DNA of 64,000 bases from Lingula anatina (Eukaryota > Animalia > Brachiopoda), in assembly GCA_051362555.1 (NCBI GenBank), contig CM120648.1, positions 3,654,587-3,718,586 of the forward strand, written 5' to 3'. This document shows positions 4,754 through 41,271 of the stretch, piece after piece. The stretch's first letter is position 1; each line of letters begins with the position of its first letter. The translations under genes were made by a program, and so were the position numbers. Under the pieces are notes generated by a model. That model searched no databases. It was not told the origin of the DNA and saw nothing but the letters and a program-made list of their open reading frames with translations.

Positions 4754-4794
<41 letters not shown>

Positions 4795-14900: not shown

Positions 14901-16216
14901 TACGTCATTCTGTATTAGACGCTATACAAAATCTTTCAGCTGAATTCAAATTTAGACAAATCTAGAACTCTCTTTCTTTGAACATTTTTATCTTATTTTT
15001 ATAGTCTACCTATTATATGTGATCACGGTTTTATATAATTTTCATTAAAACCCCAGGGGATTTTCTTGTGAGTGTAAGCCGCACGAACCCTGGACCGGAG
15101 AACTGTGTGAAGTAGACAGGTGCGTCAGCGAGGGCTTCACCTGCAAAAATGGAGGCTCGTGCAAGTGGAACGGCAACGATGGATTCATTTGCAAATGCGG
15201 GCCAGGTATGTGGTTCTGAATACAACATATAAGAAATCTGATGTTTTTGTGATATATTGATTAAATTCATATGCGTTACTGGCGACGCCATTTGAAATAT
15301 TTTCCAATCCGAAAAGGCCCATAGTGGCTGATGGACTAATTCTGTTAGTCTTATATATATTGGCTTGTAATGTCTATTGGCAGTTTTCTGAGATAACACC
15401 GAGGAGTTCGGCATTGACATATTACATCAGTGAATAGGCTTGCTATCGGCCGAGTTGAACTATTTGGGACAGCTAAAACTAGTGCACTTAAATATGGACA
15501 TGTGAAACTTGAAACCTCCACATCAGTAGATTCGAGCGTGAAATTAGCGATTTTCAATAGTGACGCATTTTACAATTAAGAAATAATTAAATTTAACCAT
15601 TCCTGTAGAGGTTGACGGTATTGGGGAGTATAATTGTGGTAGCTGAGATCCAACAGAATACGTACGATAACTGAAAAAAGAAAAGTTTGGTTAATGGACT
15701 AAAACGAGTTTTTTATTCATATTTTGTATTTGAAAGTATGTAATTCTAGGGATTCAACTAACACTAATTGCCTACAGTCAAAATTTAAACGTTATTCAAA
15801 CTTTTTTAAGTCCTTAAACATTCTCTATAAAAAGCATCATAGGGCGATGTGGAAGATACGTCTTATTTGAAGTTTCACTCTCTTTGAATAGTTTCTGGTC
15901 TTAATTTTTATTATAATTATTATGATAGTTTGCAAGTTTGATTGCGTTAGTCATTGTCTTTGTTCCTGATTTATTTATTTGTAGCATGGCAGCTCATTCA
16001 GTTTACTCACGCACAGGGTCGTCATTGTGTAATACTGTAACATCATAAACCTCGCTGTGTTCTTCAGGGTACCAAGGCAAGGACTGCAGCGTGGACATTA
16101 ACGAGTGTGATAGCTGGCCTTGTTGGGACGGCGTTTGCGTCGACCTGGTCAACGGATACAGGTGTGACTGCGACCCTGGATTCACCGGCGTGAACTGTGA
16201 ACAAAGAGGACCTTAA
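9..16216 (+). CDS. Secreted multidomain adhesive/mucin-like protein (FAMeT-like - VWA - 2x H-type lectin - VWD - Thr-rich - C8 - TIL - EGF repeats), 5' incomplete
   Basis: Exons with GT-AG sites and consistent phases: 9-34, 332-483, 2755-2911, 3098-3244 (Methyltransf_FA-like: FEVKAAENAHI, FEIVIG, FWVSW, TGFGAKGEW); 4405-4694, 5034-5159, 5540-5693 (VWA, MIDAS DESGS, FTDG); 6328-6506, 7189-7378, 7823-7978, 8825-8932 (H-lectin-like: F..P.V, VTPTGF, VTKTGF, W.A); 9273-9343, 9663-9836, 10499-10722, 11286-11390 (VWD: CRAVGDPHF, LCGICGNFDG); 11666-12219 (Thr-rich + C8); 12508-12716 (TIL); 13421-13610, 14042-14137, 14586-14679, 15057-15205, 16068-16216 (EGF, last one Ca-binding DINEC; stop TAA). About 1230 codons, open throughout, no TM segment seen. 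Confidence 0.88.
609..2640. mobile_element. Helentron-associated (HINE/pearl-like) non-autonomous element with internal tandem repeats, in an intron
   Basis: Hairpin TGTACAGACAC...GTGTCTGTACA at 615-640, then a (GTCGTCGCC)n microsatellite and degenerate ~130-165 bp tandem units (AAAACGCAGGTCAAGTTCGAAAA...). Subterminal TGTCTGTACA and short hairpin CAGCTTTGCTG near 2607-2640. Confidence 0.65.
3478..3813. mobile_element. Kolobok-like MITE (TTAA target site duplication)
   Basis: TIRs AGGGATAACAACTCTTCG / CGAAGAGTTATTATCCCT, flanked by TTAA at 3474-3477 and 3814-3817. A second copy lies in reverse orientation at 38922-39258. Confidence 0.8.
11720..11925 (+). repeat. Coding Thr/Pro-rich mucin-like tandem repeat (PTITTTTTT units)
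   Basis: Repeats of ACAACTACAACT / CCCACAATCACAACC within exon 11666-12219. Confidence 0.9.
13089..13440. repeat. 175-bp tandem duplication that copies a splice acceptor
   Basis: ATATGAAAACCAAATGG...TCAAAGGTTGGGGACCAGCTTTTAAT occurs at 13089 and 13264. The paralog has a single copy near 37897. Confidence 0.9.
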
Positions 16217-16838
16217 GAGTTTAACTGGTGGCCTTAAGACGCAACATTGAAATGATTCGTTATTTGCTCTCCCTTCGAGAATCGATCTGTAGTATAGGGT
16301 ACGCGCTTCGTGATGTGCTTTTTAAAAAATCGTGATATTTTTCCTCTACGTGTTGAAATTTATCTGCAGCAAAAAAAGGTTTTATATTGGAACAAATTTG
16401 GGGTTTTCTTTTAATTTTTGTCCATTTTCTACGTCTTACTTGAATATTCCAATTCCGTAATAAACCAGATGATTTGCACTGACCTTTTTACGCTATTTGT
16501 TTCGCTGGCTTTAGAATTAAGTTCTTATTTCAACAATCAGAATCAAAACTGCGTTTCGTGATTTAGAATGAAACTAATATGGAATTTATCTCGAAAATTA
16601 CACCGGAAAATGCTCATTTGTTTGATTGATTATATATTTTTCACGAAAAGAACTTTCTTCAATATATTTGTTTTATATGGTTACACCAAATACTATTGTT
16701 TTCAAAGAAGTATGTTGCTAAACATATTGTACTCAAGGAATACGCTTCAATTTTGCTATGAACTAAATAAACCATTGCCCACGGAAACACTTTTTATTGA
16801 TGTTCATTTCATTTTTATTTCTGTTCGAACTCCAGTGA

Positions 16839-16869
<31 letters not shown>

Positions 16870-16897
16870 TTCACACACACACACACACACACATGCA

Positions 16898-17070
16898 ACA
16901 GGCCAGTAGCCAGCAATTGCAAAAGGCAAATGGGGGTTCTTTTTCAGAAAATGTGGACCTTTTTTCATGAAACCTTAGTTTATCTACATCAAATTTACCC
17001 AGAATAGACCTTTTCCCAGCAAAAAGGGGGGCTCCTGTGAACTCCCCCCACTCCACTGGCTACGGGCCTG
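16898..17070. mobile_element. Short MITE (CAGGCC.GTAGCCAG...CTGGCTACGGGCCTG)
   Basis: Terminal inverted repeats. A paralogous copy lies at about 41958-42117. Confidence 0.6.
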
Positions 17071-17516
17071 TGCGGACACGTGTACAAACGCTAGGGCCCT
17101 CCATTACACCTCTTTTAGCACCACTAAGCACCTTGCTAACACAAGTATTGAATACCACCCAAACACAAACATTATGCCGTCGTTCACAAATATTGATTAT
17201 TGTGATTCCTAATTTATCCAACCATTGTGTCACCCGCCTTAAGTAGACTTTTAACAGCACAACCGTGACAAACTCTGGACAATACATGCATCTCTTGTAA
17301 AACATTTAATAATGTGGCCCGGAATGTGGACAATTGACTCCATTTTGTACCGCAAAGGCAATTTTTTTTACCGAACTGGGGGCGTGAAAACCGCACAATA
17401 CATGACCGTGTTTTCAGTGCATTTCTTTGCGGCCCGAACCATGGATCTTTACTCTTGTTGATGAATGGACCAACAGCCCGTTGACCTCGCTGAATCTTTT
17501 GCCACTTGGAAAAGAT

Positions 17517-18485
17517 CAGGCCTTCCCAACTACCAGACTCGGCACCTACGGGTCCAGTATAAACCGGTTTATCAGACCACACTACCCGTTTTCAAGGTGT
17601 GTGTCAGATCGCATTACAGGGTATCAGCCACCACACCGATTTTGCCTGGTGCGCGATGTGATAGCAATGATCCTAAGCGGGGTTGGAAAGTAGTGCATCT
17701 CATCTAGATTCATGCGCTGCTGCAATTTTCTCTGTTTATACTAAAATCTGACAGTACCGCAATTTTTAACATAAAATTTAGGTTCGGACATAGCCAATGA
17801 TGTTTTGTAAATAAGAACTTGCAAACTTATATATTAATTTAGAAAAGTAGACTTAATTTTGATAGCAGAAGCATATTCTGTCGGGGGTTAAATTATTTTC
17901 ATGACTACCGGGATGGACGAGATTGAGGGCAGGGGTAATCCTAGAGAGGGGTGAGAAACGTCTATTGTTCTCGTCAGCGAGGCTGTCCTTTTTCAGGGTT
18001 TGTATGCACGGACAGAAAACTTAAGTATTGGACGTGGGAACGTTACTAATGAAGCCACTGGTAGTACTAGTAGATATCAGCCTGTAGTCTTGAACAAGCG
18101 CCTCGATGACGAGTGAACAGTCGTCAAAAACAAAAGACCCAGGTGTGGTAGTTCAACTACTGTTCATGCGTGCCGCAACGACCAAACCTAATTGCTCCTC
18201 AAGGTCACAAAACAATAACCGGTACTGACGGCTAGGCTCGTCTTAATCATATAAGTAGCGCGTTTCCACCCCCTGATTGAGGGAGTCGTCTGTTGTATTC
18301 ATACGACTCCTACCTGACGAAAACGAGGCGCGATACCCGGATGACAGGTAGGCTTACAGAATTTGTGAAAGGGTATGATACTCTTTTATGCGATCTGACA
18401 CACACCTTGAAAACGGGTAGTGTGGTCAGATATACCGGTTTATTCTGGACCCGTAGGTGCCGAGTCTGGTAGTTGGGAAGGCCTG
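17517..18485. mobile_element. Non-autonomous hAT-like DNA transposon with ~100-bp TIRs and 5-bp TSD
   Basis: CAGGCCTTCCCAACTACCAGACTCGG... / ...CCGAGTCTGGTAGTTGGGAAGGCCTG, flanked by AAGAT at 17512-17516 and 18486-18490. The empty site GGAAAAGATGGGCC is present in the paralog at about 42556-42569. No transposase ORF. Confidence 0.85.
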
Positions 18486-18941
18486 AAGATGGGCCAATAC
18501 AAATAACCTAATCGCCGTCTTAATAGCCATAGAAGATTGCAACCAAACTGGTGGATACACAGCATGTTTTCCAGGTGATACACCTCCGATTGGTCCTGTT
18601 AAGACAGGCTTGCCATACACGATTATATACATTATACTATTACACTGAATTCCGTTATACGGCCGACAGATCAATGGAATGCTGAACTATCAATACTTGC
18701 GACAGGTAAATGAACCGATCGATCGAGTCTGAGGATTTACCTGAGCGGAGGAATGTGAACGATTAATCACTTCCTGAACAAGTTAGCGTTGTGGGCGTGC
18801 CCAGTCGGTATCAAATTTATCGTAAACACAGTTGGTTAAAATGACTCTTTGTATGTGATTGGATCTTGTCCAACAAAGCGGTTTCTGATTGGGTTTTGTC
18901 CTTGATAAATACTGTCGGTAAAAGCAAGTGTTTCATAAGTG

Positions 18942-19436
18942 ATGGACGACAGTGAAGTATTCGAGGACTGTGCTCCCGATGACAAGCCTTTCTTTTTTCA
19001 AGTACCTTTTTGTAAGGAAGAAGAGAGGATTCTTAGTTTTCTTAACTGGCCTGGTAAACTTCTCATCAACCCTATACCTTTAGCCATAAGCGGGTTTTAT
19101 AGGGACCCCAATGCATCAAGTACAGACGACACTGTCAATTGTTTCAACTGTCGGGTCAGCCTAAAGAATTGGGATCCACTGAGGGATGCTGCTGATAAAG
19201 AGCATGAAGACCACAGTCCGCAGTGTACTATGAATACCGTTGAAAGGAGACTTACGAATCCAATAAACGTCCCTCTCAAACCCGAAAAGCGCCACGAATT
19301 TGTGCAGCTGTTTGTCGCCAACGAAAAAAAATCTAACTACACAGGCAGTACGGTGAAAACACTGTTGAACATAAACTTTGATGAAGTGGACAGAAATTCT
19401 GGGATATCTTCTCAAAAAACGTACAGACTCTTTTAA
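18942..19436 (+). CDS. BIR-domain (inhibitor-of-apoptosis-like) protein carried by the Maverick
   Basis: RILSFLNWP...LAISGFY...DTVNCFNC...WDP...EHEDHSPQC is a CX2C-X17-H-X6-C zinc-binding BIR signature, followed by NVPL. Intronless, ATG at 18942, CCAAT/TATA-like motifs upstream. No RING domain. Confidence 0.8.
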   Translation: MDDSEVFEDCAPDDKPFFFQVPFCKEEERILSFLNWPGKLLINPIPLAISGFYRDPNASSTDDTVNCFNCRVSLKNWDPLRDAADKEHEDHSPQCTMNTVERRLTNPINVPLKPEKRHEFVQLFVANEKKSNYTGSTVKTLLNINFDEVDRNSGISSQKTYRLF

Positions 19437-19492
19437 AGATATTTATTTAAACACATACTTTAGCCTTCTTGGAAACAGTTGAAAAAAGTAAG

Positions 19493-20608
19493 ATGAAGAG
19501 AAAACAAACAAGCAGTAATAGTAAGAAACAGATAGATGAATATTTAAGGACATTATATTACAGGTACGACCCTTCCAACCCTGCTAGTTTTGGTAGTGCA
19601 TTGAAATTATATGAAGCGGCGAGAAAAGCTAAAAAGAAGATCACCCGTATGCAAATCGAAGAGTTCTTGACGAAACAAGATACATATACTCTACACGCTA
19701 ACGTCAGAAAAAGATTCCATACCAATCGTGTTGTTGTTGGTCGTACAGATCAGCAATGGCAAGCAGATTTAGCTGACCTCAGCAAGTTATCAAAATACAA
19801 TAAAGGAATGAAATATTTATTAACTGTGATTGATGTTTTTTCAAAGTACGCATGGGCTGTGGCCATCAAATAAAAAACTGCTGATAGTGTGTTGGAAGCG
19901 TTTAATAATATTTTAGCAGAAGGCCGAAAACCGGCAATTTTACAAACCGATGCAGGAACAGAATTTATAAATAAAAAATTTCAGGCATACCTGAAGGAAC
20001 AAGGAATAGCCTTTTTCACAACAAAGTCGGAACGAAAAAGTTCGATAGTCGAAAGGTTTAACAGAACGTTAAAATCTCGCATGTACAAATATTTCACCGC
20101 CAACAGTACACTTACATATTTATACGCACTCGACCAACTTTTGAAGGGATACAATGCAGCTAAACACAGGAGCATTGGTATGTCACCAACAGAAGCGTCA
20201 AAAGAAAACAACTCAGACGTGGTATGGAAAAACCTTTACGGGGATACAATATTCGAAAAAGCAAAATTTAAATTCAACACTGGAGACACTGTTAGGTTGA
20301 GCAAGTATAGAACTCCATTTGCCAAAGGCTACGAACAGGGTTGGACACAGGAGTTGTTTACAATAACGCAGCGTTTAAACAGGTCACCGCCCGTCTACAA
20401 GGTGGAAGATTACGAAGGAGAAGAGATAGAGGGTGTCTTCTATGAACCTGAAATGATTCGTGTTGTGAAGAAAGACGACGTGTACATAGTCGAAAAAATT
20501 TTAAAATCAAGAGGCAAGGGTAAATCGAGGGAACATTTTGTAAAATGGCGAGGTTATCCAGAAAAATTTAACAGTTGGATCAAGGCATCAGACGTTAAAA
20601 CGGTATAA
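19493..20608 (+). pseudogene. Maverick retroviral-type (rve) integrase with C-terminal chromodomain, one in-frame stop
   Basis: Motifs YTLH...RF, QWQADLAD, IDVFSKYAW, LQTDAGTEF, IVERFNRTLK; chromodomain VEKIL...VKWRGYPEKFNSW. In-frame TAA at 19871-19873 (ATC AAA TAA AAA ACT) splits the two ORFs. Confidence 0.9.
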
Positions 20609-20645
20609 ATGATATTTCGTTTTCCCCGGAGCTCCAGTTGAAGCG

Positions 20646-21377
20646 ATGGCCTCGTCTTTTCATGTTATCTTACCTTCTAACAGCAGCTTTAAGTATTTTC
20701 CAAAGAATAAAGCTGAGTCATTTCAAACAAAGTTGTCGTCAACCTTATATTTAGATGGTGACTACGAAGTTGCCTTAGTGGAACTTCAATATCCAAAAAC
20801 ATGGAAAAATCTAAAAGATAGTGCTCTGATGTATTATGATGGACTGACGACAAATACATTGTCTATCCCTGCTGGATACTATCGAACCATCAATGACCTC
20901 ATAACTACAATCCACGATGACCTATCAACTGTTGGAAAAACAAACATCACACTAGGATATAATATTATATCGAGACGAGTTACAGTTCATTTACGTTCCG
21001 GTGCAAGTATCAATTTTACCGGTGATGTAGGAAAGATGTTAGGTTGGGTAACGGACACGAGGGTAACTTCAGACGTGATGGCTCCTAACCCTCCCAACAT
21101 GACTCTAGGCTTTAATTCGCTATATGTATACGCGGATATCATACAAAATCAGTTGGTGGGGGATGCGTCTGCAAATTTACTGAAGATCGTTGGTGTCAAT
21201 GGTAAACGTGAGGAAGTTGTTACCAAAACATTTGATTCGCCTATTTACATCCCTTTGAATCAACATCACATCGATACCATTCGAATAGATATATGTCGCG
21301 ACACGGGTGAACTTGTGCATTTCGATAGTGGGAAGACGATTGCGACGTTACATTTTCGCCGAAAAAGTTTACTGTAA
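20646..21377 (+). CDS. Maverick minor capsid (penton) protein
   Basis: F.VILPSNSS..YFP.N....F, YEVALVEL.YP, LYVYADII....VGD, YIPL, LHFRR motifs typical of Polinton single jelly-roll penton. TATAAA at about 20605. Confidence 0.85.
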   Translation: MASSFHVILPSNSSFKYFPKNKAESFQTKLSSTLYLDGDYEVALVELQYPKTWKNLKDSALMYYDGLTTNTLSIPAGYYRTINDLITTIHDDLSTVGKTNITLGYNIISRRVTVHLRSGASINFTGDVGKMLGWVTDTRVTSDVMAPNPPNMTLGFNSLYVYADIIQNQLVGDASANLLKIVGVNGKREEVVTKTFDSPIYIPLNQHHIDTIRIDICRDTGELVHFDSGKTIATLHFRRKSLL

Positions 21378-21379
21378 CA

Positions 21380-21733
21380 ATGGATCCTGTTTATCAAGCC
21401 CTAGTTAAAAGATACGAGACACAGGCGGGTGGTGGCTCTATACACAAGTTCCATGGTACAAGGATTCAACGGGGTGGTGGTAGGTTACATCCACCTCGAC
21501 GTGCTGAAATATTGCAAGTGCATAAAACTGTTGCTTCAAAAAAGAACATGGCTGTGAAAAGAAAACCTAAAAAGAGAGGTGCACCTGACCTGTACGTGGA
21601 TGGTGACGTCATAAGAAAAGCTTTAAACTCCATGACTATAAAGAAGAACAGATCACCTCAAGTGGTCAAAAGTCCAAAAGTTCGCAAGACACATCGGTCA
21701 CCTGCAGTCAAGACACGAGATACAAATTTTTAG
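21380..21733 (+). CDS. Basic core-like (pVII-like) virion protein
   Basis: Sits between penton and MCP. QAGGG and QRGGG resemble adenain cleavage sites. K/R-rich C-terminus ending in DTNF. Confidence 0.6.
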   Translation: MDPVYQALVKRYETQAGGGSIHKFHGTRIQRGGGRLHPPRRAEILQVHKTVASKKNMAVKRKPKKRGAPDLYVDGDVIRKALNSMTIKKNRSPQVVKSPKVRKTHRSPAVKTRDTNF

Positions 21734-21735
21734 AC

Positions 21736-23043
21736 ATGAACGACCCAATTGTAAAAACAGAACTTGATTTATTTACCAATATTAGGGATCATTATCAAAC
21801 GGATATTGAAAGCACTGTAGATGAGGAAATTCGACCAACGACTGCTGTGTCACAGGTCAGCAATGTCTTTGAGTTTGTCATCAAAGGCACACCTGACGAA
21901 TATATCGACCCCACTCAAATTAACTTGTATGTAGAGGGACAGCTCAGTAAGGCTGACTTGAGCAGTTTAGACATTGGTCAAAACACATCGGTCGTGAACA
22001 ACACGCTTCACTCATTATTTGCATCAGTGGACGTTGAGCTTAACGACAATTTGATAACCCTTGGTCAAAATTATGCTTACCGAGCCTACCTTGAAAACCT
22101 ATTGAACTACGGAAAAAGTGCAAAAGATACATGGCTTACTAGCGAAATGTGGTATAAAGACACCGCCGGTCAAATGAACAGTACAAATGTTAGTGGCGAC
22201 CCTGGAAACAAGAGGTTACAAGATCGCGACTTTTGGTTTCAGCGTAGTAGGAAAGTGGAGAAGTATGGTCGACTGAAAATCGATTTGGCAAATCAAGAAA
22301 AACTACTTTTGAACAACGTAGACGTGCGAATCAGGCTAAGAAGAACACCCGATGTATTCTGTTTGATGTCAGAAACCAAAGACAAAAATGAAAAATTTTT
22401 GATCAACAACATCTCTCTTTTTGTGAGGAGAGTCAAAGTATCCGATCGGCTGAAATCGGCCCACGACAGTATATTGACCAAACATGTAGCCTGCTATCCT
22501 CTTACAAGAAAAGAAGTAAAGGTTATAAATTTGCCTAACGGAGTCAGAAATGCTAATCTTGATAATATTTACATAGGGACTATGCCGAAACGTATCATTT
22601 TTGGAATTGTTGACGATAATGCCTTTTCGGGAGTCTATGACAAAAGCCCTTTCTTATTTAACCATAATGATTTAAAGCATTTGCGACTAACGGTGGCAGG
22701 GGAGCAAATTCCATTCAAGCCTTATAATTTTGATTTTTCCGTCAACGAAGGTTTGAACTATATAAGAGCTTATTACGACCTTCTTTTGTCAGTTGGCGCT
22801 GCTGGTGGCGAGAGTGATATAGATCTGTCTAGACTTGATTACCTGTATGGAAACACGCTTTTTGGCTTCGATCTGACAGCAGACAAAAACTTTGAAAACT
22901 ATATTTCACCAACAAGACAAGGTACACTCAACATTAATCTAGAATTTGATAAAGCCACCAACAACAGCGTCTTGGTTGTTTTGGCAGAATTTGATTCTGT
23001 TATAAAGATTGATCAACGTCGCAGTGTTTACATTGAGTATTGA
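21736..23043 (+). CDS. Maverick major capsid protein (double jelly-roll)
   Basis: ELDLF, FEFVI.G..DEYID, VNNTLHSLF, YAYRAYLE.LLNY, PKRIIFG.V...AF.G....PF.F, LFGFDLT.D, EFD..I.ID. 435 aa, intact. Confidence 0.9.
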   Translation: MNDPIVKTELDLFTNIRDHYQTDIESTVDEEIRPTTAVSQVSNVFEFVIKGTPDEYIDPTQINLYVEGQLSKADLSSLDIGQNTSVVNNTLHSLFASVDVELNDNLITLGQNYAYRAYLENLLNYGKSAKDTWLTSEMWYKDTAGQMNSTNVSGDPGNKRLQDRDFWFQRSRKVEKYGRLKIDLANQEKLLLNNVDVRIRLRRTPDVFCLMSETKDKNEKFLINNISLFVRRVKVSDRLKSAHDSILTKHVACYPLTRKEVKVINLPNGVRNANLDNIYIGTMPKRIIFGIVDDNAFSGVYDKSPFLFNHNDLKHLRLTVAGEQIPFKPYNFDFSVNEGLNYIRAYYDLLLSVGAAGGESDIDLSRLDYLYGNTLFGFDLTADKNFENYISPTRQGTLNINLEFDKATNNSVLVVLAEFDSVIKIDQRRSVYIEY

Positions 23044-23573
23044 TGATGGATACTCGACAATTGGACTGCATACTAAAAGCTGATCCTTTTACGAGTGCCT
23101 GTTTTCAAGGAGTATACGCATCTGACACGTTGCCTAAGGAAATTCAGATATTTCCCGCCTGTTTTGTGTCAAATACAGATAAACATACGGGTCCTGGCAG
23201 ACACTGGGTCGCTTTTCACTTCAACGAAAATGGGGTTGGAGAATTTTTTGACTCTTACGGGCAACCTCCTGATTATTATGATGAAATGTTCGAAAGTTTT
23301 CTAGATGAAAACTCTACAACTGCATGGACGTGTAATTCTAGAGCACTACAGAGCATTTACACTAAAGTGTGTGGTCAATACTGTATATATTATTTAATGA
23401 ACCGTTCTCGTGGGAAACCTTTAGCACAAATACTTAGAAGTTTTACAAAAGATAAACAATTTAATGATATGTTAGTGTATGATTATGTTAATAAGCGTTG
23501 CATTATACCCAGCTTTGTAAATATGAATTGTCAAACTTGTAAATCAAAAAAATATTTAGGATTCATGTATTAG
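23043..23573 (+). CDS. Adenain-like cysteine protease (virion maturation)
   Basis: F.GVYASD.LP, NTD....PG.HWVA (His), EFFDSYG (Asp), LQ.....VCGQYC (Gln, Cys). Confidence 0.9.
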   Translation: MMDTRQLDCILKADPFTSACFQGVYASDTLPKEIQIFPACFVSNTDKHTGPGRHWVAFHFNENGVGEFFDSYGQPPDYYDEMFESFLDENSTTAWTCNSRALQSIYTKVCGQYCIYYLMNRSRGKPLAQILRSFTKDKQFNDMLVYDYVNKRCIIPSFVNMNCQTCKSKKYLGFMY

Positions 23574-23630: not shown

Positions 23631-24325
23631 TCAATATATGTTGAATGATGCCAACTTTAGAAAATTCCCAGAACCTATCTGACTTTTGGCAGAGGAAGTG
23701 TCTCCATCCGCAATCTGGTGCCGTCGCTTTATGTTCGAAATAGTATTTAAAGGTACATTTAGACGTTTCAAACCCTGAAGAAAGACAGAAAGCCCAGCTG
23801 GCGTATACTTTTTACGTGACACGAAAAGATCATTCATCAAATCTACAATGTTGGTGCCTTCTATAACATTCCCATCGTATTTTAATAACCCTTGTTCATT
23901 ATAGGACAATACATTAGGGTTGTTAGACATGTATCTAAGCACTATCCTAGCCTTTTTTTGCATCCTTTGTGGGATGGAATCCAATATTTCTTGGTTGAAA
24001 TATGTTTTTTTAGGGAAGTCTTCTGTTTTAATGGGTGGACTGTCCATTGTTGCTGATGCGGTTGTAGGGGAGGGGCTGGTGTATTCTGAATAACTACAGC
24101 AACCGGCTCCTTTTTTCGGGCAATCTTCAAATATTGAACTTGCAAATCGTTGTACATTTTCATTTTCTCGTCAAAAGATATATCTGTTCTTTGCATAGTC
24201 TTTGTCATTTCATTTTGCAATCGTAGCGTCTCTTCTTGTAAGGGAGAGTAATATCTGTTGACTTGTTGTTTCAAGGCGTTCAGTTCAGATTCACTTATCA
24301 AGACCATTTTCTGAAAGCTTGACAT
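23631..24325 (-). pseudogene. Conserved Maverick accessory protein, frameshifted
   Basis: The N-half (KMVLI...EM.......DEK...Y) and C-half (IL.SIP...G..IEGTNIVDL.ND...P.G...F...L...NVP) lie in overlapping frames. From recollection these motifs form a single ORF in related elements. Confidence 0.6.
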
Positions 24326-24632
24326 TTCTTGATATCGGATTTAAAATTGCTTTGACCACAGGAGGGTGTCGTAACAAAAGTTTTTTCTTGGACTGTATGG
24401 AGACTTTTTTATCAGCCAGTTGTACAACGACGTGTTTAACTCTGCGTAGTGCCGATTTTTCTGTTAAATTCAGCTTGATATCCTTGTTATACAGTATATT
24501 AGCAGCAAAGTTGCACAGGATTCGAATCAGATCATAGGGAGAGTTTAGTATTATACCATGTATCAATTTCTTATCGGCTACTGAGAGCAATTTGACATGA
24601 AAATGAAATAACTTTTCGGTCCCGGATTTCAT
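24291..24632 (-). CDS. Small basic helical Maverick accessory protein (PW-like)
   Basis: LI.IL....ANIL.....L...EK..L......QLA.KKVS...KKKLL pattern typical of small Polinton ORFs. TATAAA upstream on the minus strand at about 24670. Confidence 0.55.
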   Translation of the reverse strand: MKSGTEKLFHFHVKLLSVADKKLIHGIILNSPYDLIRILCNFAANILYNKDIKLNLTEKSALRRVKHVVVQLADKKVSIQSKKKLLLRHPPVVKAILNPISRNVKLSENGLDK

Positions 24633-24806
24633 GTTACAATTAAGTCAAGATAGAGGCTGCACAAGCATTTATAGTCAATGACTTAACTTCCAGATATATG
24701 TATTGTGACTATTTCGAGGTCCATCAACAAAATAGCTGTGCATGTTTAAAAGAAAATATTTATACACACCAATTGTTTATTTGCGTAAAGAAACAAAGAA
24801 AAATCT

Positions 24807-25507
24807 TCATTTACATTTAAAGGTTCTTTCAAATACCCCCTCTATGGCAAATTTCCCTTTATCTGTCAAAGCACGAGTGCCAATTCCTGCAAAATGACGC
24901 GTGAGTTCTGGCACATCTGGATATAATTTGAACATTTTTCTTACAAAATCAAACTTGTACCATTGACATGACCCTTCTTCCATCCCAGTCCTTTCGTTTT
25001 TAAAAGAGTCAAACACATAGACGGGTTTATTCTTGTCTACTGCCATTTGCACTGCCCACCCTGACCGTCAACCATCTTGTTCATGATATTTTTTCCAACA
25101 GCAAAAACAACATCGGAATTTTTCACCTGATACCAGTTACGTTGAAGTAAACTGTCGACAAAAGTCTTGCCCGTGGGAAACTTTCTGTGCAGTGACTTGT
25201 TGGCTTTAAGCAAATGCTCATTAGCATCTTTTAGTTCTTTTTTATTCAAAACTTTTCTGTAAGGATTGCTTGTAGCGTGGCCTGAGAATGAATACACAAC
25301 TGTCTTGACATTATACCTTTCACTCGTTTTTTGCCAATATATATCACTCCCGGTGGCACCACCAGAATGGTTGGTATACAAAGCTGGAGTTCGATGCTGA
25401 TTAAAAGTAGTTTGACTCAATTCTAATCTGACTGGAGATGACCCTGGTTCTTCTGCAGCTCTAAGTAGTTTACTGTAATTGACAAATTCACCTCCTAAAC
25501 TAAACAT
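24807..25507 (-). pseudogene. Phage-type SLOG (DprA/YpsA-like) nucleotide-binding protein, frameshifted
   Basis: HSGGATGSD, LLQRNWYQV.NSD.VFAVG, then a frameshift at about 25065 where G(GT)GWAVQMAVD.NKPVYVFD is restored in the next frame, then W, P, FAGIGTR. Confidence 0.7.
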
Positions 25508-25657
25508 CTTTCTTTTTCTTGTCACCAACAGCAAAGAAAATGTGAACAAAGTATATGACTATTCCAATGTCAATCAAGCAATTAACTGTGCATACATGAA
25601 AAGTAAAAAGATATACACATATTTGTGTCAAGCACGCAGGAAGGCAACTTGCGTCTC

Positions 25658-26288
25658 TCACGGAAATACACTACTTCTCAAACGAATCTCGTCTGGGCAA
25701 TCTTGGGTTAAATCGATCAGTAGATAACCGTTTGGTTTTTCTGTTGCCTGTTTGAACACGCCAAGAAAGCCGCTTGCTTCCCCGTACATTTGTGTGGCTA
25801 AGGTTCGTACTTGGAGAATATCTCTTGGGTTTTTAAAAAGCACGATATAGTGGCTATTCAAAGAGATTGTTCTGGCTTGCTTTTCCTTTGGAAATAATGT
25901 TTGCATTATAAATATTACGCTGACGTTCAAATGATGAGAGCCTTTGGTAAACAAATCGCGTATTCTAATGTCACCCCCCGTTTCTGCGAATAAGTCATCA
26001 AAAATGACCAGATTGCTTAGATTTGCATCAAAAAAAGTGCTCAGGTTGAAAGTCAACAGGTATGCCTTTTACAAATTTTATGTTGTTAATGGTGTCTTCC
26101 ATTTCAGCAAAAACGGGTTGCCAGATCGAATAGAAATAGAATATTTTATCAGGCGGCGGAGATACCATTTCACCGGCGTTTAGCAAAAGACGTTTCACCC
26201 AAGCAGTTTTCCCGCATTTTGTCGGTCCAGAAACAATCATCGTACTAGGCGATTTAAACCTCACGTCACCCATGGTGATTACTGACAT
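25658..26288 (-). pseudogene. A32/FtsK-like genome-packaging ATPase, +1 frameshift in a T7 run
   Basis: Walker A SGPTKCGKT, Walker B LVIFDD, FTKGSHH.N.SV.FI.Q, RTISLN.HY.VLFKNPRD, GYLLIDL, RLRS. One extra T at about 26030-26036 (CAC TTT TTT TGA). Confidence 0.88.
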
Positions 26289-26904
26289 TTGCAAAGCAAA
26301 ACGCGACACTTTATAATAGTTTTCTATCACGTGTTTGTTCTCACCTTTGTTTTTTAGCGCTCTGTTCAGAAGACTCAGCCAGCTCACCATCGCTTATAGT
26401 TTGGTGTTCAAAGCCTTGCCGTCTTTCGTATTTTTCTAAATGTGCAACCATTTCACTGTCAGAAATACAGCTCTGCCATAATTCTGAGTGATCCATGTCT
26501 ACACAGTTGCCTACAGGAGTCCCTTACATCTCGGACTTTTTATTATATACAGCGAAACAAAATGAGTCGGCATTTTCTCCATCTTAGTGTGACTTATCAA
26601 AACAGAATATTCTAGTTTCGTGACTAAGACTTTTCCAGAAGAAAAAATATTATGTAATAAAATGTTCCAGGCGTGAATATCAGATTAGAGAGAGAATATC
26701 CCAAAACCGGTGAAATCCGGCCATGATAGGAAAATTCCAGTTCTATCTTAATACCATGTAACAGAATGTGTCTGATGGATTACAAAAGTAGCTAATCAAA
26801 TAGATATTATATCACAGAATGTTTCAGTTCCGTGACTCAGCGATTTTCTTCCTGTATATATAGGCCAAAAAACCCACAGATGTGCATAGACTGATCCGAA
26901 AGCC

Positions 26905-27666
26905 ATGGCCACATTTCTACCCTTCGGTGCATCATTTTGCGCAACAGTCTGCCATAACCGACATGGCGAGTTACTGGTGGTGTTGACGGACAAGGCGAAA
27001 TGCAAAATACGATTTAGCTCGATCGTATGGGGCCAGTTCAAAACACACGCAGCAGAACTTGAAGAGGCCTTGCTGAAAGAGCAAGTTTCAACAATTCCTT
27101 TCTGCGATGGCTATAACTTGTCTTCAGATGGTTCCGGATCCCCGATTAAGATTAGCTACGCGCTGGGTGATGCCACCCCCACGGTCATTGAAATGGCGTA
27201 TGCAGATTGGTCGGCGTTTATGCGACTGTTCCGAGAAATCGATGCAAACTTAGATAAGAAGAAAGAAAAAGATGATGCCTCGACGAGCACTTCCGTCATT
27301 CGCCTGATTTACGCCTATTTTCTCACGAGGAAAATAGTGCAACTGCGTAGTCAAAATTGTAATGGCTGCGAGATCGAACACCCTAGCCAGCGCCAACATG
27401 CCTGCCTTGAACCGGTGTGGTCGATTTCAGTGTATCAGTTTATTGATGATGCATTTCAACATATCCAAAACAGCGTCATACTGCGAGCATACGAGCTGTA
27501 TTGTTCTACTAAAGGGGTAGCAGATGATCCATACATTTTCGCCATTATTGAGCGCGTTGCTCAAAACCGCGAACAACTTGTACATGAAGTGATTGCAGCA
27601 GCTGATGGCTTCCAATGTGCTGAAAACACCTTGAAAAATTGCTATAATCGTATCTATGAACTGTAA
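26905..27666 (+). CDS. Maverick accessory protein: tandem PC4-like repeats plus Cys/His motif
   Basis: Two similar segments (I.F....W..F.....ELEEAL / I.M....W..F.....EIDANL) and CNGCEIEHPSQRQHACL. TATATA at about 26855. AATAAA at about 27777. Confidence 0.65.
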   Translation: MATFLPFGASFCATVCHNRHGELLVVLTDKAKCKIRFSSIVWGQFKTHAAELEEALLKEQVSTIPFCDGYNLSSDGSGSPIKISYALGDATPTVIEMAYADWSAFMRLFREIDANLDKKKEKDDASTSTSVIRLIYAYFLTRKIVQLRSQNCNGCEIEHPSQRQHACLEPVWSISVYQFIDDAFQHIQNSVILRAYELYCSTKGVADDPYIFAIIERVAQNREQLVHEVIAAADGFQCAENTLKNCYNRIYEL

Positions 27667-27922: not shown

Positions 27923-28425
27923 ACAAACCTTTGATAACCAGGGTAATGTTTCCACATGCCTAACTGATATACAGTGCTTGTCAAATATTTGATAATGCTT
28001 AACACATGCTAGGTCTCGCGCTTGCAAATCCCCTATTATGATAAGACCGCAGACACCCTGTGCGGTCAGCTTGAGTGCGTGGCTGCTTACACCTCATTTT
28101 GTACCTCTTTTTTGTGCCATATAGTTACATTGAAATTTTCAGAAAAAGTTGGTTGAACGGTGCATAACATACACAAACCTTTGATAACCAGGGTAATGTT
28201 TCCCCATGCCTAACTGATATACAGTGCTTGTCAAATATTTGATAATGCTTAACACATGCTAGGTCTCGCGCTTGCAAATCCCCTATTCTGATAAGAACGC
28301 AGACACTCTGTGCGGGCAACTAAGTCAGCTCGCGCATGCAAATCCCCTATTCTGATAAGACCGCAGACACCCTGTGCGGTCAGCTTGAGTGCGTGGCTGC
28401 TTACACCTGAATACACCTCATTTTG
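27923..28425. repeat. Direct repeats (250-bp period) with internal hairpins at the right flank of the Maverick
   Basis: ACAAACCTTTGATAACCAGGGTAATG... at 27923 and 28173. Three copies of GCAAATCCCCTATT.TGATAAGA.CGCAGACAC. Hairpin GACCGCA-N9-TGCGGTC. Confidence 0.85.
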
Positions 28426-28854
28426 TGGGATAACATGCAAAACAAATTTTTGAACTGTCTTCAACGCGTAGGAATTTTTACCGAAATTTTCACCAATGTA
28501 TAATATATAATGACGTAATCATGCCGATGTCTTCAGCCTAGAATATGCGTACATGTAGTAAATGTAATGTTACTGGCCATGGTGAGTACTTTTATCCTCG
28601 TCTGTTCCTTGTATTTTAACTATCACTAAAACTTATCACTAAATCACTAAAACTGCGCATGTATTCTATGATAATATGTGACATGTCCCCGAAACATTGG
28701 TGAAATCAAATAGAAAAATATCAGCTATAGTAAACATTGGTGAACGCAAACGGAACCAAATATAGAAAAATATCAGCTAAAATAAACGTTCTCGACCTGC
28801 CCCTTAGACGTATCGTTAAAAGGACACGTTAGTTTGCTTTGATGTCACGATCTA

Positions 28855-29110
28855 GACTGGGTTCCCATACCTAGATTGATCTAACAGTATCGATCCATCT
28901 CCAAGGTGTTTCTCGCTAAATTGCTTTCAGCTTAAGTGGCTTTGATGTCTGGCACGTTTACTGAAGCTGCTAAACGATAATTAATTACCCCCTAACAGCT
29001 TCAGTAGGCGTGACAGACATTTAAGCTGCTGAAGTTTATTGCAATTTAGCAAGAATCCCCTTGGAGATAGATCGGTCTAGTTATAGTTCGATAGGGTCTG
29101 GGAACGGTCG
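28855..29110. mobile_element. Palindromic MITE upstream of gene 2
   Basis: Imperfect palindrome centred on AATTAATT (about 28979). Reverse complement of 41041-41271. Confidence 0.7.
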
Positions 29111-29287: not shown

Positions 29288-32200
29288 ATGGGTCGCTTGT
29301 GGAGATTGGCTGTGCTGGGCCTTGCCTTCGTAATGCTCGATGAATTAGGATACGGTTTGTTCATATGCAAATGCTTCCTACAACAGATATTGATCTTATA
29401 TATAATTTTTTAACGACATTTGTAATGTTCATATAATGTACCTTTGAAAGACCTGAGTACGTTATCTGATCCATTATTTCATTTTTGACGAATCGCCCGG
29501 AGGAAGATAGATCGAAACAAATTCTTCCTTTAGTTGGTTATATCTGGGCAACAAAGATCATTAATTCGGTTATGAAATAATTAAATTCACGCATTTGCAA
29601 TCTGAATATCTGATTCAGGAAAATGCAATGCTGCCTTAGACAGAGACACTTATGCAGAAGTCGTTTGTGGGATAACAGATAAAGGGATTGTTTGGAGGAG
29701 CTTCCATAGTTGTGCGGCAGCAGGCATGGGCGTGCCTACAGTTAGCACATTTTTTAGGTAAGCTCGGATGTCTGTATTCTCTGATATAACAGGGGTCTCT
29801 AGTAAAGCCTGTTCGAAATTGAAAATTCTCGTAAAAGACCAGTAGGGGCCCCTGCGGTAAGAGAATAGGATGTCTGTGTATTTTGGCGGCAAGGGGAGGT
29901 GCGTGGCCACAGTTGCTTGACAGCTGGGAAGGGCGTGGCTTAGTTTTCAATGACAGCTGGCATGGGTGTTCCTCAATAAGTTGTGAGTGTGAGGTGACAT
30001 TTTGTATTGGTGTCTACCAAGATTTCTCGACCGTGTTACGGAAAGTTTCAACAAACCCGTCTTGTGCTTGGAACAGCTGTTCAATAACAACGAGAGCTTT
30101 TTGGTGTAATATCAATACAGATTGATTCAAAGTCACTTTCTTTAGTAACGAATGGCTACAAACTTTTGTTTTAAACTTCAGAAATGGTTGCAAGGATTTG
30201 GTGATAAAGTCCCTACCAGACGTAGCTAAAGCTAAACACCTAGCGTGTAAAATCCTGGAGAAAATGGCCAACGAGTGTGTCAGTCTGTACGGGGCGAATG
30301 TCTCGGATTGGCGGGTTGAAACCGGATGCACTCTGACCACGCCCCCTTTAACCACGCCCAAGACAGCCACACCCACGCCTATTAGTACTACCATAAAAGC
30401 TTTGTCTACCGCTAAACCAAGTGGTAAGTCTGACGATATTTGTATATTTTAAGATGAAAGTAAGTATTAGTCCTTTTGTCGAATGCCCTAGACCAGTAAT
30501 GTAAGCATTCCTACTCAGCCTGCTAAAACTAGAACTATCAGCCATTTTTGACCTGATGATACTCATGCGACTATTTATTTGTTTATTTTACTTCTCAATT
30601 ACCAAACATTAATTGTTCGTGCTTTATTATTTAGTCATGTAACGCATTTCTTTCCATATTTCAAAGATAAACATCGTTTTTATCTAGTAAGGAAGCCAAT
30701 GTTTTACCTAAAAAGAAGTAACCTGCCGTTCATATCTTCCTAGTAATAAATAATTATTTGTTTATGCGCTTTGTCAATTCATTCGGGGAGTGAAAATATG
30801 TTAAGTAACACTTTTGAGTTGCTTGGCAATTAATGACAGGCGATATCTTTCTTGATGTTAGCTGAAACTAATGAGCATCTCCACATTGTATGTATACTCT
30901 GTAAACCTAAAAGCCATTTGTGTAGTAGTATCGAAGTAGCAAAAAAGCATTAACGCAGTAGTGGTGTGGAGCATATTTGCAGTAGAAATGCAGCTTAGCC
31001 TACTGCAATTCTACTCCAGGTTTGTACAGAGAGGAGCATTAATGCAGTAGATTAGCAGCATGATAGAAGCATGTTTCAAATATGCTAATTAGCTCCCAAA
31101 TCGAAGCAAATTTGAAGCATGTTTGCAGTATGATTGCAGTAGTCTACTGCGCTGGAGTATCTACTGCGTTTTCTTGCGGGGACTTAGGCATCTGTAGTAA
31201 AGTTACTGCCAACATATTCATCTGGTTCATCTAAAAGTAAAATAAAATAGGTAAAATATATTGCTCCAAAATGATTTTAAACAATATATCGCGCTAAAAA
31301 TTAAATATGTTGTGGTGGGCGCTGGTGCCCATGTCAAAATGGATACAGATTACAGTAAAACTTCCCCATACATGCATTAACTACGGAGCTACAAGAGACT
31401 ATAGCAATAAATGCATTGTGTAATTAATTGTTTAATTTACTATAAAATTTAATAAATAAACCAATATTCGTGTTTATTACAGTGGACTTGCATGATAAAA
31501 ACATCAACCGCATTAATTGCAGTCACTAAAGTAAAACGAATGTATAAAAAAACAACATACGTGTACTCTTGCCCTCCTTTGAAACCCTTCCAGTCTGCGT
31601 CTTCTCTCAGACAGCCTACTACGCGTGCCAAATACGCGGGGTTGTCCATGTATTCTTTGCTTTGCTTTACAATGTTTTTTTTTCCGAGAAGAAAGCGGAA
31701 AAAATTCCAGAGAAATAAAAATGTAGCTATTGCCGCCATGTTTCGTACTGCTCGATGCAGCGCATGCGCAATTGCCTAAGCAGGAAGTTGCACCTGGATT
31801 TTGGCTTTGCCGATGCGGATTCCACTTTACAGTGTGAACGCAAAACCGAATCGGATTTCCCACGAAAAAACCGGTTTATAGAAATGCGCATTTTTTGGAA
31901 CTGTAGTGTGAACGGGGTATAAGTGGATATTGCGATAAAGTTCTAAAAGCGTGTGGCATGTGGTTCCCTTAAGAAAAAGTGCATGCATTCAAATACATGT
32001 TTATATGCTTGGCTTTTCTAAATTGGCAATTGACATAATCTGGTGAAATATTGTAGTCAATACAGTCACGGTTTGCCTTTTGGTTTTATTGAAAAAAGTA
32101 TATGGTATTTAAGATTTCTTTCGAAATGCAGTTTAGTTGGTTACAATTCTAAGCAGTCTGTGCTTAGAACGAATGTGGACTAGAAAAGCACTCCAAGAGC

Positions 32201-35200
32201 GCAGACCTCCGCCAAGGCAGCAATTTTTTTATTATTATTCATTATTGATTGATTATTGATCCAGATCACCACCAAAAACTAATCATCTGTTCTTTGGCCC
32301 ACTTCCGACAGTTCCTGAAAATTTTAACATAACATAACTTTTTGAGTTATGATGATGACAGACAAACAAGCAGGGGTGAAAACTACCTCCTTGGCGGAGG
32401 TAATTAGTCGTTTTGTTAAACAGGGCGTTAAGGGATGCGAATGCGGCGGAATAGTTGATTGTGGTGTCCTATACAGATCGTGAATTTTTTGTAAGACTCT
32501 TCAACATAGATATGTAGTTACACCGCCCGTTCGCTAGGCACCTGTTTGCGATGAGGCATACCAGATGATTGTATTCCAAAGTGAAGTTATGTGTCTATTG
32601 GACCGAAAGACTCGACTGAAGGAGTTTTTGAGAGTTCCATTCTATCATCTTTCTGTACCAGCTTTCGCCTTTAAACTGTGTTGCTAACTGGTAAAAGAAA
32701 TTGTATTTGTTGTACCTTTACGATTCTTCTTTTACAGAATGTGGGAAGGATGTCAAAGCGGACGTTCTGTTCGTCATTGATGAATCGAGAAGCGTAGGGC
32801 CTATCAATTTTGAAAAAGTGAAGAAGTTTTTAGCAGATTTGGTTCTTCAGTTACCCGTGGCGCAAGACAAGATCAGGGTTGGAGTTCTCAGTTTTACCCA
32901 AATTGTACACCCTCGTATTTCCTTGAACGAATTCGACAAACCACGTGACGTTGCAGACGCCATTTTGAACATGAGTTATCATGGCCGCCGGACAAACATT
33001 GCGGCGGCTTTGTGGTATGCTCAACAGGTAACGTATCAAAATTCCTGAGCAACCGGAACAACTTTGTCTTAACGGGTTTCATTTATTCATTTTATTATTA
33101 TTATTATTATTATTATTAATAATAATAATTCATCTGCCAAATTATGTAATAATTCAATTATGCTATTGATATGACGAAGCAAGTTACCTAATAAACAATA
33201 TCTATAATTGGATAATCTTTAATTGACAAATGACTGTTATTGTTGACTAAAATGCTGAAAAAATGTTTGTGTGTGAGTATGTGAATGCCAATCTGAGATG
33301 AAAAGTTATACAATTACTTATATGGCTCACTACAAAATTGATTGGAGAAACTAAAGTACATACCTTTTTTTCTTTACTAGACCTCTTTTTCCAAAGCTTC
33401 AGGGGACAGAAGCACAGCGCCTAATTTGTTGTTCCTGTTTACCGATGGGAGGTCGAGACAGCGCCAAATATCTGCGGCAGCAAATGCCACCAAAGCTGGA
33501 ATAGAGGTGCGTTTAAATTGCAAAGGCGAATGAGCCCCCCCCCCCCCCCCCAACCCCGGGGTGGGGGTGCTTTGTCTTCTCAATCGTGTCAACTATGAGC
33601 ACAGAAAGCAGGAGGTCAGCCCCCAGAGTTAAATTTTGTTTTCTTCACACCTGAAATAAAACATGTATTATGAATAAAGAAACACACCCAAATTTCATAC
33701 TGGAGACTTATGTACAGTGTCTCAACATTCCGTCTACGTGTATCTTGTAGACTTCAACAGGAAACCAAGATAACAGTCATGGTATAGAGGTGCGTTTTAA
33801 TTGCAAAGGCGTATGACCCCTCTTCTCAATCTTGTCATCCATGAGCACAGAAAGCAAGGAGTTTAAAGAGGATACACATACAATCATCGTCACTGTTTTT
33901 TTTTTCTTCTGTAAGATCAGCCCCCAATTAAAATTTTGTTTTCTTCACACCTGAAATAGAACATGTACTATGAATAAAGAAAGACACCTAAATCTCATAC
34001 TGGAGACTTATGTACGGTGTAGGTCATATATTTCAACATTCCGTCTACCTGTGTCTAGTAGACTTCAACAGGAAACCAAGATAATGGTCACTGTTGTACC
34101 TAATAAACCCCATAACCAACATTTAAAAAAGAATAGCGCCTGAAACGAATGACACTTTTACTTCCAGATATATTCCATAGGCATTGGTAGGAGTACAGAG
34201 TGCCTTTAAATTTTGGCACTCATTTAAGAGAATACACCCCATAATGAATACTTAAAAAAGAATAACGTCTGAAACATATTGCACTTTCAGATATTTACTA
34301 TAGGCATTGGAAGTAACGTGTCGATTCCGCAAATTACACAGCTTGCTAGCGAACCAAAGATCGACCACGTGTTTACAGTGGCGGGATTTGACGCTCTGAC
34401 GACAATTAAGAGCACACTGGGAGCAAAGTTTTGCGCTGTTAAAGGTGGGTCAACCGAGATATTCCAAAATAGTAACATAAAATGAACGGTTCCGTCTTTG
34501 GTGTAAATATATAAAATTTTATCTCATATGTGATATGTTTGGAATATTTTCCTCACTCCACAGCGAAAAAATGTAACTCCGACAAAGAATATCAGACTAA
34601 CGTCACTGAGTGTCAACCCACGTGTCCGGGAGCCCCTCAGAACTGCGGCGACCCGACTAAGATGGTGCCAGAATCTTGTGTGTGTAAACCGGGCACAATT
34701 CTGGACGGCACTGATTGCATTAAGCCAGCTAGCTGTGTGCCTAAATGCTGGGATAACGGGAATGCGTATCAGGTAGGTTCCCTTTTAGTACAATGTTTGT
34801 TTTGGTTTAAATCTCCTCCGAAAATAATACAATTTTCCAATTACGTTGCAGTGTAACATTTGCTACATTTTCAAAGTAATATGATGTTTGCGCATGCAAT
34901 CAAGGGTGGGCCTTTTGGTTTATTTTAGGTCGCATTGGGGCCATTCAGAATAGATGATCCGAGGACTAACTGATCCGCTGGCTAAATATGGCCTTTAAAT
35001 GCGATACCGCTAACTCCATGATGGTCTCCCCGCCTCTAGACGCGCCGTCCATGCTGGAGCCTAGCAATTAAACCTCAGAGCCAACATTTAATCCGTTTAA
35101 TGGCGTGTGTTGAGGAGAGGACACTATCATGGAATTATTCTGCGGCGTAATTACTGGCAGCGCGAGCCAGTTACTATAAGTTACTTTAAGTAACTGGTGT

Positions 35201-37694: not shown

Positions 37695-37734
<40 letters not shown>

Positions 37735-41041: not shown

Positions 41042-41271
41042 GGACCAGACCCTAACGTACTAGCCATGGAACGATCTAACTCCTAAGGGATTCTACCTAA
41101 ATTGCAATCAACTTAAGCGGCTTAGATGTCTGTCACGCCTACTGAAGCTGCTAGAGGGTAATTAATTAGCGTTTAGCAGCCTCAGTAGGCGTGCCAGACA
41201 ACTAAGCCGCTTAAGCTGAAAGCAATTTAACGAGAAACCTCTCGGAGATGGATCAAACTTGGAACCTAGTC
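41041..41271. mobile_element. Palindromic MITE inserted at the stop codon of gene 2
   Basis: Absent after the gene 1 stop (CCTTAAGAGTTT). Flanked by a short TTA/CTTAG repeat. Same family as 28855-29110. Confidence 0.75.

Follow-up and report, generated by a model that had tools for sequence, protein, structure and literature searches.

How did a SLOG gene come to lie directly behind the packaging ATPase gene of an animal Maverick, and was it ever of use there? The locus in question is a stretch of 64,000 nucleotides from the brachiopod Lingula anatina (contig CM120648.1 of assembly GCA_051362555.1; hereinafter, the window), in which a preliminary description, made from the sequence alone, had noticed the gene and proposed that an animal integrating virus had acquired a bacteriophage module. 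The position of the SLOG gene behind the packaging ATPase is confirmed. Contigs of the DNA run X1, which may be the source of the window itself, bridge the gene to both neighbors, at 24290-24868 (1 difference) and 25358-26262 (5 differences).

The broken gene and the element around it

From ATG to stop, the gene occupies 701 nucleotides (~233 codons) and, among the open reading frames of the window, is made up of two overlapping minus-strand frames (25037-25558 and 24807-25067; Table 1), in agreement with the earlier account of an intronless ORF of about 230 codons with one frameshift near 25065; the single frame switch is located near 25063-25067. Both pieces are collinear with P0001, an intact Lingula anatina protein of 243 amino acids (E 1.1e-61), and therefore no intron is present; in the core, the two pieces are identical to P0001 in 89 of 103 and 72 of 85 residues, respectively (~84-86%). 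The motifs HSGGATGSD, RNWYQV, GWAVQMA, KPVYVFD and FAGIGTR, listed in the preliminary description, were all found in the translations, except that the "GT" given there in brackets is missing from the sequence because, according to the alignment, the frame break falls inside the GGT motif. Outside the break, every family-invariant residue is kept in the aligned window copy. The 3' piece carries an insert that is common to the window copy, Lingula, horseshoe crabs and Glandiceps and is absent from the other proteins inspected. The other above-chance matches of the gene are phrog_768 (E 1.8e-7) and a crAss phage (tblastn E 1e-20), with no Pfam match for either piece. In four host DNA runs, contigs that do not share the window's version at the break account for 169 of 203, 296 of 345, 182 of 315 and 393 of 393 of the contig depth; these may be host paralogs rather than other elements.

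Table 1. Window coordinates of the SLOG gene and of the surrounding element.
Feature	Coordinates	Strand	Basis or remarks
BIR (IAP-type) accessory gene, left end	18939..19436	+	E 5e-13
Retroviral-type integrase with chromodomain	19451..20608	+	rve E 2e-4 to 5e-4; Chromo E 1e-8; in-frame stop
Putative minor capsid protein	20613..21377	+	position only; no library match
Basic ORF in pw position	21329..21733	+	position
Putative major capsid protein	21607..23043	+	size and position
Adenain-like cysteine protease	23037..23573	+	Peptidase_C5 E 0.055, under cut-off
Two overlapping ORFs in pz position	23631..24340	-	position only
117-aa ORF, positionally pm-like	24291..24644	-	no family match
SLOG gene, whole	24807..25507	-	intronless, frameshifted; ATG at 25507, stop at 24807
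SLOG gene, 3' piece	24807..25067	-	insert, permuted GIGTR strand, last helix
SLOG gene, frame break	25063..25067	-	inside GGT motif of SLOG family
SLOG gene, 5' piece	25067..25507	-	start codon, ~44-codon leader, SGG-x-G-x-D loop, RN motif
SLOG gene, leader	25376..25507	-	net charge 0
A32/IVa2-type packaging ATPase	25658..26288	-	frameshifted near 26030; Pfam E 0.011 and 5e-4
258-aa ORF with Cys/His motif	26890..27666	+	strand opposite ATPase module; no family match
Short direct repeats	27923..28408	.	possibly subterminal

Several Maverick features are recognizable around the gene, namely, a retroviral-type integrase with rve and Chromo matches, broken by a stop; a packaging ATPase and an adenain-like protease, for which the best Pfam matches are the expected families, under the cut-off (both ATPase matches fall below the curated values); and two convergent modules, one running on the plus strand from the integrase to the protease and the other, with the ATPase, on the minus strand. 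Among the window ORFs scanned, there was no long ORF or Pfam match for a protein-primed PolB, and no pair of terminal inverted repeats with AGTAGT ends was found in the window; therefore, the element is a truncated, decayed Maverick-like remnant, and the copy of the SLOG gene within it is now a pseudogene. The element spans from ~18820, where the host-duplicated DNA stops, to at least 27700, and probably includes the 258-aa ORF. The putative major capsid protein had no match in Pfam, NCBIfam, PDB sequences or IMG/VR, and IMG/VR scans with the capsid and integrase of the element found no relative; diverged relatives of the element genes occur in the host DNA runs. In GC and GC3, a non-discriminating comparison, the SLOG gene resembles the other element genes.

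The preliminary description placed the SLOG gene between the ATPase and a PW-like gene. A broken ATPase gene upstream and an ORF downstream are indeed there, but the PW label is doubtful, given that this 117-aa ORF sits in the pm position. We call it pm-like, by position, because in the map of vertebrate Mavericks atp and pz are separated by pm, whereas pw belongs to the capsid module (PMC8097293). Mavericks and adintoviruses carry host-type accessory genes such as IAP and Bcl2 (PMC8502044), as does the window element with its BIR gene; however, the accessory genes in the available text of that paper lie in flanking regions, with no SLOG named, whereas the window SLOG gene is inside the core module. 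That SLOG is outside the core Maverick gene set agrees with the absence of any mention in the Maverick papers searched. Our literature searches found no paper on a phage-type SLOG family in animals or Mavericks, although the SLOG clade definitions of Burroughs et al. 2015 could mention animal members. SLOG terms had no relevant match in the available parts of PMC11161782, PMC8097293, PMC13389597, 10.64898/2026.05.06.723128 and 10.1101/2025.04.19.649669; in those of PMC8502044 and 10.1101/2025.10.09.676808, SLOG occurs only inside "SLATT". One supplementary file of PMC8502044 gave 0 matches; the gene maps of that paper are figures. An unnamed "Adintoc" gene might still be a SLOG.

Outside the element, the window contains a host segmental duplication with ~80-92% identity (12409-18824 versus 34463-42909, and 3815-5708 versus 31920-34459), of which the first block ends at the element start; high-copy or inverted-repeat-bounded (MITE-like) insertions at 17516-18486, 28853-29101 and 35192-37467, the last one with 240-base arms; and host gene pieces at 10292-12263, 32695-33048, 45887-46810 and 56997-57945, with VWD and C8 (mucin-like), VWA, NHL repeats and MAM domains.

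A permuted SLOG family in phages, bacteria and animals

Structures were modeled from intact homologs, not from the broken window copy, namely, P0001 (pLDDT 84.4) and the coral-type protein P0312 (86.0), where "coral-type" is assigned by sequence likeness only. The best VIA match of both models is 3IMK (Z 13.1, rmsd 3.8, 142 aligned for P0001; Z 12.8, rmsd 3.5, 143 aligned for P0312), which we take to be the cpYpsA (PF12694) structure. The top 13 VIA rows for the P0001 model are SLOG-type entries, with family names that are partly our assumption, and DprA, YpsA, LOG and ShosA rank behind 3IMK, at Z 5-7. Residues 2-157 of 3IMK align to residues 47-241 of the P0001 model, that is, end to end, whereas the canonical SLOGs (1RCU, 2IZ5 and 2NX2) align only from residue 34-40, ending near model residue 208-213, without the first strand and helix; therefore, the modeled homologs are circularly permuted, the strand and helix that come first in canonical SLOGs being placed at the C-terminus. 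This fold match, along with the pocket motifs SGG-x-G-x-D, RN, GGT and G-I-G-T-R, which are kept in 18-19 of the 19 animal representatives (the window copy is broken in GGT), bears out the assignment to the SLOG superfamily.

With cpYpsA, the family shares the permuted fold over the whole domain, but at ~16% identity: the only Pfam match of P0001, to cpYpsA, is sub-threshold (11.9 vs 26.2 bits, E 0.19), and the animal proteins are set apart by an acidic leader and a basic core. The epithet "DprA-like" serves as an annotation label; the architecture is circularly permuted relative to DprA and lacks the N-terminal SAM domain of DprA and ShosA, having instead a ~50-residue leader with one helix and the permuted core. 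NCBIfam had no match for P0001 or P0312, and the PDB sequence search returned one chance match. Judged by the models, then, the window gene family is a permuted SLOG that belongs neither to DprA nor to LOG and stays below the cpYpsA score. LOG phosphoribohydrolases carry a glutamate-bearing PGG-x-GT-xx-E motif; this candidate was rejected, with no glutamate at the motif place in the alignments.

The preliminary description had considered the motif set typical of bacteriophages, and a phage-type subfamily is what the phrog_768 and crAss matches point to; the named non-animal relatives are phages. The P0001 searches yielded 1597 proteins, with 1785 representatives in a second set. Most of the nearest non-animal relatives come from phages or resemble phage proteins, with about 42-50% identity; for the best matches over the domain, the range is about 45-58%. 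Named phages account for 90 of 50,697 records, headed by the giant protein of crAss cr113_1 (45.6%), followed by the virion RNA polymerase of the N4-like phage Pylas and by jumbo phages, including Atu_ph07, in which the SLOG lies beside an NAD synthetase; all are of the same subfamily with the same motifs, identity to named phages being 34-46%. Many non-animal relatives are domains in proteins of 2,000-7,500 residues, and ART-PolyVal or NADAR is present in 3 of the 19 proteins scanned. A pattern-limited search of a 185,579-species genome collection returned 59 loci (best, 46%); plasmids had no match to the SLOG family.

For the analysis of genomic neighborhoods, 265 locus-derived domains were reduced to 82 representatives, 81 of these with neighbors, and 246 neighboring sequences were scanned. 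Macro, NADAR, DUF4326, NAD synthase, ART or Nudix was found within two ORFs or fused at 11 of the 81 prokaryotic or phage loci, a raw count with no background rate, and 70 loci had no ADP-ribose-type neighbor. WYL and dUTPase were each found at 6 of the 81 loci, and neither RecA nor ComF among the 246 sequences. In Flavobacteriaceae (L247, L251, L252, L255, L261 and L289), a gene for a WYL regulator comes next after the SLOG gene, a pairing that suggests a ligand-sensing defense unit. On a 429-kb viral contig, a major-vault-protein-like gene adjoins the SLOG gene (L091:8793-9992).

A profile of animal-type sequences detected 46 proteins above a score gap, among the best 120 of 2115. Twelve species in 4 phyla are represented among the named animal members, namely, Lingula, Limulus, Tachypleus, Glandiceps, Dendronephthya, Orbicella, Porites, two Montipora and three Acropora species. 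This animal family of phage-type SLOGs is a more interesting outcome than the window pseudogene.

Charge, candidate ligand and possible use as a decoy

The explanation that we prefer, if tentatively, is that a Maverick captured a phage-type permuted SLOG gene from its animal host. The predicted function of the intact protein is the binding or erasure of immune signals of the ADP-ribose type, and the element would accordingly have used it as a decoy against host defense.

The animal members differ from their relatives in charge. The mean net charge of the core is +12.1 in animals (n=19) vs +1.4 in stand-alone (n=156) and +1.9 in giant (n=54) non-animal proteins (p ~1e-12 and 7e-9, respectively, for rows that are related to each other), and is about +14 in the window copy. 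The leader, with a helix modeled at pLDDT 61-89, has a charge of -11 in P0001, -8 to -11 in most animal members and 0 in the window copy, in which the loss of acidity could be neutral decay. Under the preferred explanation, the pocket would accommodate a nucleotide of the ADP-ribose type (cADPR, ADPR or the terminus of a poly-ADP-ribose chain), a polyanionic ligand would suit the basic surface, and the acidic leader helix would dock on this surface as a brake; the Maverick copy, with the basic core kept and the acidity of the leader lost, would be unbraked, and the element would have used the protein as a decoy. The animal leaders are acidic and amphipathic (alignment A4), and their make-up presumably resembles that of the RPA70N-binding motifs of DNA-repair proteins.

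In our assessment, a function in binding or erasing ADP-ribose-type signals is plausible, although short of probable. We favor such a ligand, together with the acidic brake and the viral decoy role, because viral SLOGs are predicted to degrade cADPR-type signals (Iyer et al. 2022, PMC9503650), cADPR is the product of a Lingula TLR TIR (10.64898/2026.04.20.719644), and TRPM channels bind ADPR through another SLOG, MHR1-2 (LSDAT) (PMC13143021), that is, animals already use one SLOG as an ADPR sensor. The viral SLOGs in the available part of PMC9503650 are confined to caudoviruses and NCLDVs, whereas here the domain is found in a polinton-type element and in animal genomes. The TRPM and ThsA SLOGs bind ADPR or 3'cADPR and are fused to a channel and an NADase, respectively, whereas the window family is a different, phage-type subfamily that stands alone in most animal members. 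The cADPR-binding ThsA SLOG (7UXS) reaches Z 4.0 only, and 3IMK, the closest solved fold, has no ligand in its title.

Nucleic-acid binding would be equally compatible with the basic core. The same history could have involved another job, with the protein being a DprA/ShosA-like binder of single-stranded nucleic acids, perhaps serving as the antitoxin in an animal counterpart of ShosTA, which a Maverick would use for coating displaced strands during replication or neutralizing a host ShosT-like toxin. Counter-immunity through ADP-ribose and handling of ssDNA, both put forward in the preliminary description, are still the leading candidate functions. Binding of ssDNA is, in our assessment, less likely than not to be the function, and so is this reading as a whole; it is nevertheless a close second to the ADP-ribose reading on account of the basic core and the ShosT-like neighbor in one coral-type locus (L083), which lies head-to-head with the SLOG gene, ~150 bases away (PADLOC E 3.6e-31; second exon E 0.0096). 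DprA/Smf and ShosA (PMC11961720) share with the family the SLOG core (Z 6-7) and a basic surface, there are weak matches to the ShosA profile (P0003, E 8e-5), ShosA binds ssDNA (PMC11961720), and a jumbo-phage DprA has been proposed as an extra ssDNA binder (PMC7824862). However, the family is permuted and has no SAM domain, the phage members are near neutral in charge, and the ShosT link is found in 1 of 4 independent animal-type places, with none in the window, the prokaryotic loci or the other loci fetched. Furthermore, the ShosT-like gene of L083 may be disrupted, near 1634. This intron-split hydrolase-PRTase gene (L083:1055-4075, minus strand) has mostly bacterial clusters as Atlas neighbors, and its exon had no phage match and no match in the other loci.

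For the binding or removal of the cADPR that animal TIR domains make, the SLOG family of these animals is a small, intact candidate. A more elaborate version of the ADP-ribose reading, which we regard as quite a long shot, would have a stand-alone, phage-derived animal SLOG immune protein, gated by the acidic leader and partnered with a ShosT-like toxin in some corals, reading or erasing TIR-made cADPR, and Mavericks stealing it, stripping the brake and using it as a signal sponge. If true, this would be the first anti-cADPR counter-defense in an animal DNA virus and would name the missing receptor or eraser of animal TIR signals.

The animal clade and the route into the element

On the side of history, the preferred explanation posits that one phage gene would have been transferred into early animals and kept by corals, brachiopods, horseshoe crabs and hemichordates amid numerous losses, and that a Maverick would then have taken up the host coding sequence into the slot behind the ATPase. 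In a 98-row tree, the two window pieces were entered individually, next to 19 animal representatives and 77 other proteins picked by clustering from 560; all 21 animal-type rows form one clade (97/96), in an analysis in which the bootstrap had not settled. In a 38-row mixture-model tree, the 13 animal rows also form one clade (100/96), and in both trees the window copy and P0001 are sisters at 100/99. The animal clade is nested among mostly phage proteins, its sister phage group being resolved by neither tree. The mixture tree joins Glandiceps with cnidarians (96/93), against the host phylogeny, and bilaterian monophyly stays compatible (AU p 0.113, non-rejecting), the bilaterian members having the insert in common. 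These phylogenies fit one entry into animals and are compatible with vertical descent, without proving it. The likely transfer of the gene from phages to animals would either predate or span the divergence of cnidarians and bilaterians.

The preliminary description suggested checking whether animal homologs always lie in Mavericks; in the coral-type loci, they appear not to. Of 80 metagenome loci, 6 are animal-type, representing 4 independent places, and none of the 13 non-SLOG element ORFs had a match in 240 loci, these 6 included, at E 1e-3; the flanks of the coral-type copies extend over less than 1 to 10 kb, and distant Mavericks could have escaped detection. Where flanks are present, the DNA around the coral-type copies is host-like, with scattered urease pieces (Pfam E 5.6e-6), a zinc-finger-like ORF and the intron-split ShosT-like gene. 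We infer that the P0001, Limulus, Tachypleus and Glandiceps genes are non-Maverick as well. The possibility that the closest homologs are ordinary intron-containing host genes, entertained in the preliminary description, is borne out in so far as these are animal genes in one clade with host-like flanks in the coral-type loci, but not with respect to introns, which the homologs lack. Purifying selection on the coral-type copies is indicated by dN/dS of 0.08-0.13 in 4 of the 6 pairs; in the other 2, the value is ~0.5.

In four RNA runs from three studies of the host species, reads that are 80-95% alike to the window peak on the SLOG gene, with depths of 16-18 in X12, where no other element gene exceeds 0.8, and of 6.2 and 2.9 in X15, where none exceeds 0.74, and are in sense orientation in two runs that appear stranded. 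Their likeness ends at the SLOG coding boundaries, and the unmatched read ends correspond to P0001; none of the 133, 31, 202 and 77 aligned reads in the four runs is at least 99% alike to the window. Thus, a P0001-type paralog is transcribed in the host, and the Maverick genes are nearly silent. Because the reads peak on the SLOG gene and end at its coding boundaries, the simplest reading is an expressed host gene, the coding sequence of which was captured by the element; with a Lingula gene as the nearest relative and a transcribed look-alike in the same host, the element therefore likely copied a host gene. Mavericks, then, would sample a host nucleotide-binding gene into the core module.

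Alternatively, Mavericks could have been the vector: an early Maverick would have obtained the gene from a phage and spread it among marine animals, with several domestications, P0001 being domesticated or still element-borne. The members read on DNA are intronless, the distribution is patchy and many-copy (Montipora), the grouping of Glandiceps with cnidarians conflicts with the host phylogeny, and aquatic Mavericks switch hosts (PMC8097293). Nevertheless, we consider this scenario rather doubtful given the lack of Maverick genes near the coral-type copies, the long separate stems of corals, horseshoe crabs and Lingula, and an RNA likeness that is confined to the coding sequence next to nearly silent element genes.

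Accepting capture from the host, the copy might still be a neutral passenger, that is, a host coding sequence that got into one element copy by accident, plays no viral role and has decayed ever since. The SLOG copy is broken, as are the integrase and the ATPase, no RNA read in the four runs reaches at least 99% likeness, and 18 of the 40 listed nucleotide differences fall on codon positions 1 and 2. Conversely, the gene is in the orientation of its module, with spacers of ~150-160 bases and a polyadenylation-type hexamer ~25 bases behind the stop, and has no A-tail. The window copy and P0001 differ in 27 core residues; the window copy has the ancestral residue in 9 cases and P0001 in another 9, and the family-invariant residues outside the break are all kept. 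Third codon positions account for 22 of the 40 nucleotide differences (p 0.004), these 40 being the best supported of the 372 listed. In addition, one X2 contig joins the SLOG gene to the 258-aa ORF (25302 to 27079), hinting at a second, deleted element copy; the gene is firmly inside the element in the window copy only, and the second copy rests on this one contig joint. The module orientation, compact spacers, ancestral residues, third-position differences and X2 joint together favor a period of use, during which the captured lineage would have stayed coding for a time, and we deem a mere passenger improbable. If the window copy is one after all, the animal family is still unreported in the papers searched.

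Direct uptake of the module from a bacteriophage by a Maverick lineage is highly improbable, the trees having largely refuted it: phage-type proteins prevail among the top non-animal matches, but the closest homologs are animal, and the window copy is nested inside the animal clade beside the Lingula gene, with an insert absent from the other proteins inspected. Of the earlier interpretation, accordingly, the SLOG fold, the phage-type subfamily and the lack of mention in the Maverick literature searched remain, and the direct phage-to-Maverick transfer does not.

Two members of the animal family have unusual organization. The gene model of Glandiceps P0121 joins a Pre-SET/SET domain to the SLOG domain, either by fusion or as a merged prediction, and the P0330 and P0324 clusters consist of many near-identical Montipora paralogs on several chromosomes, which suggests a recent expansion.
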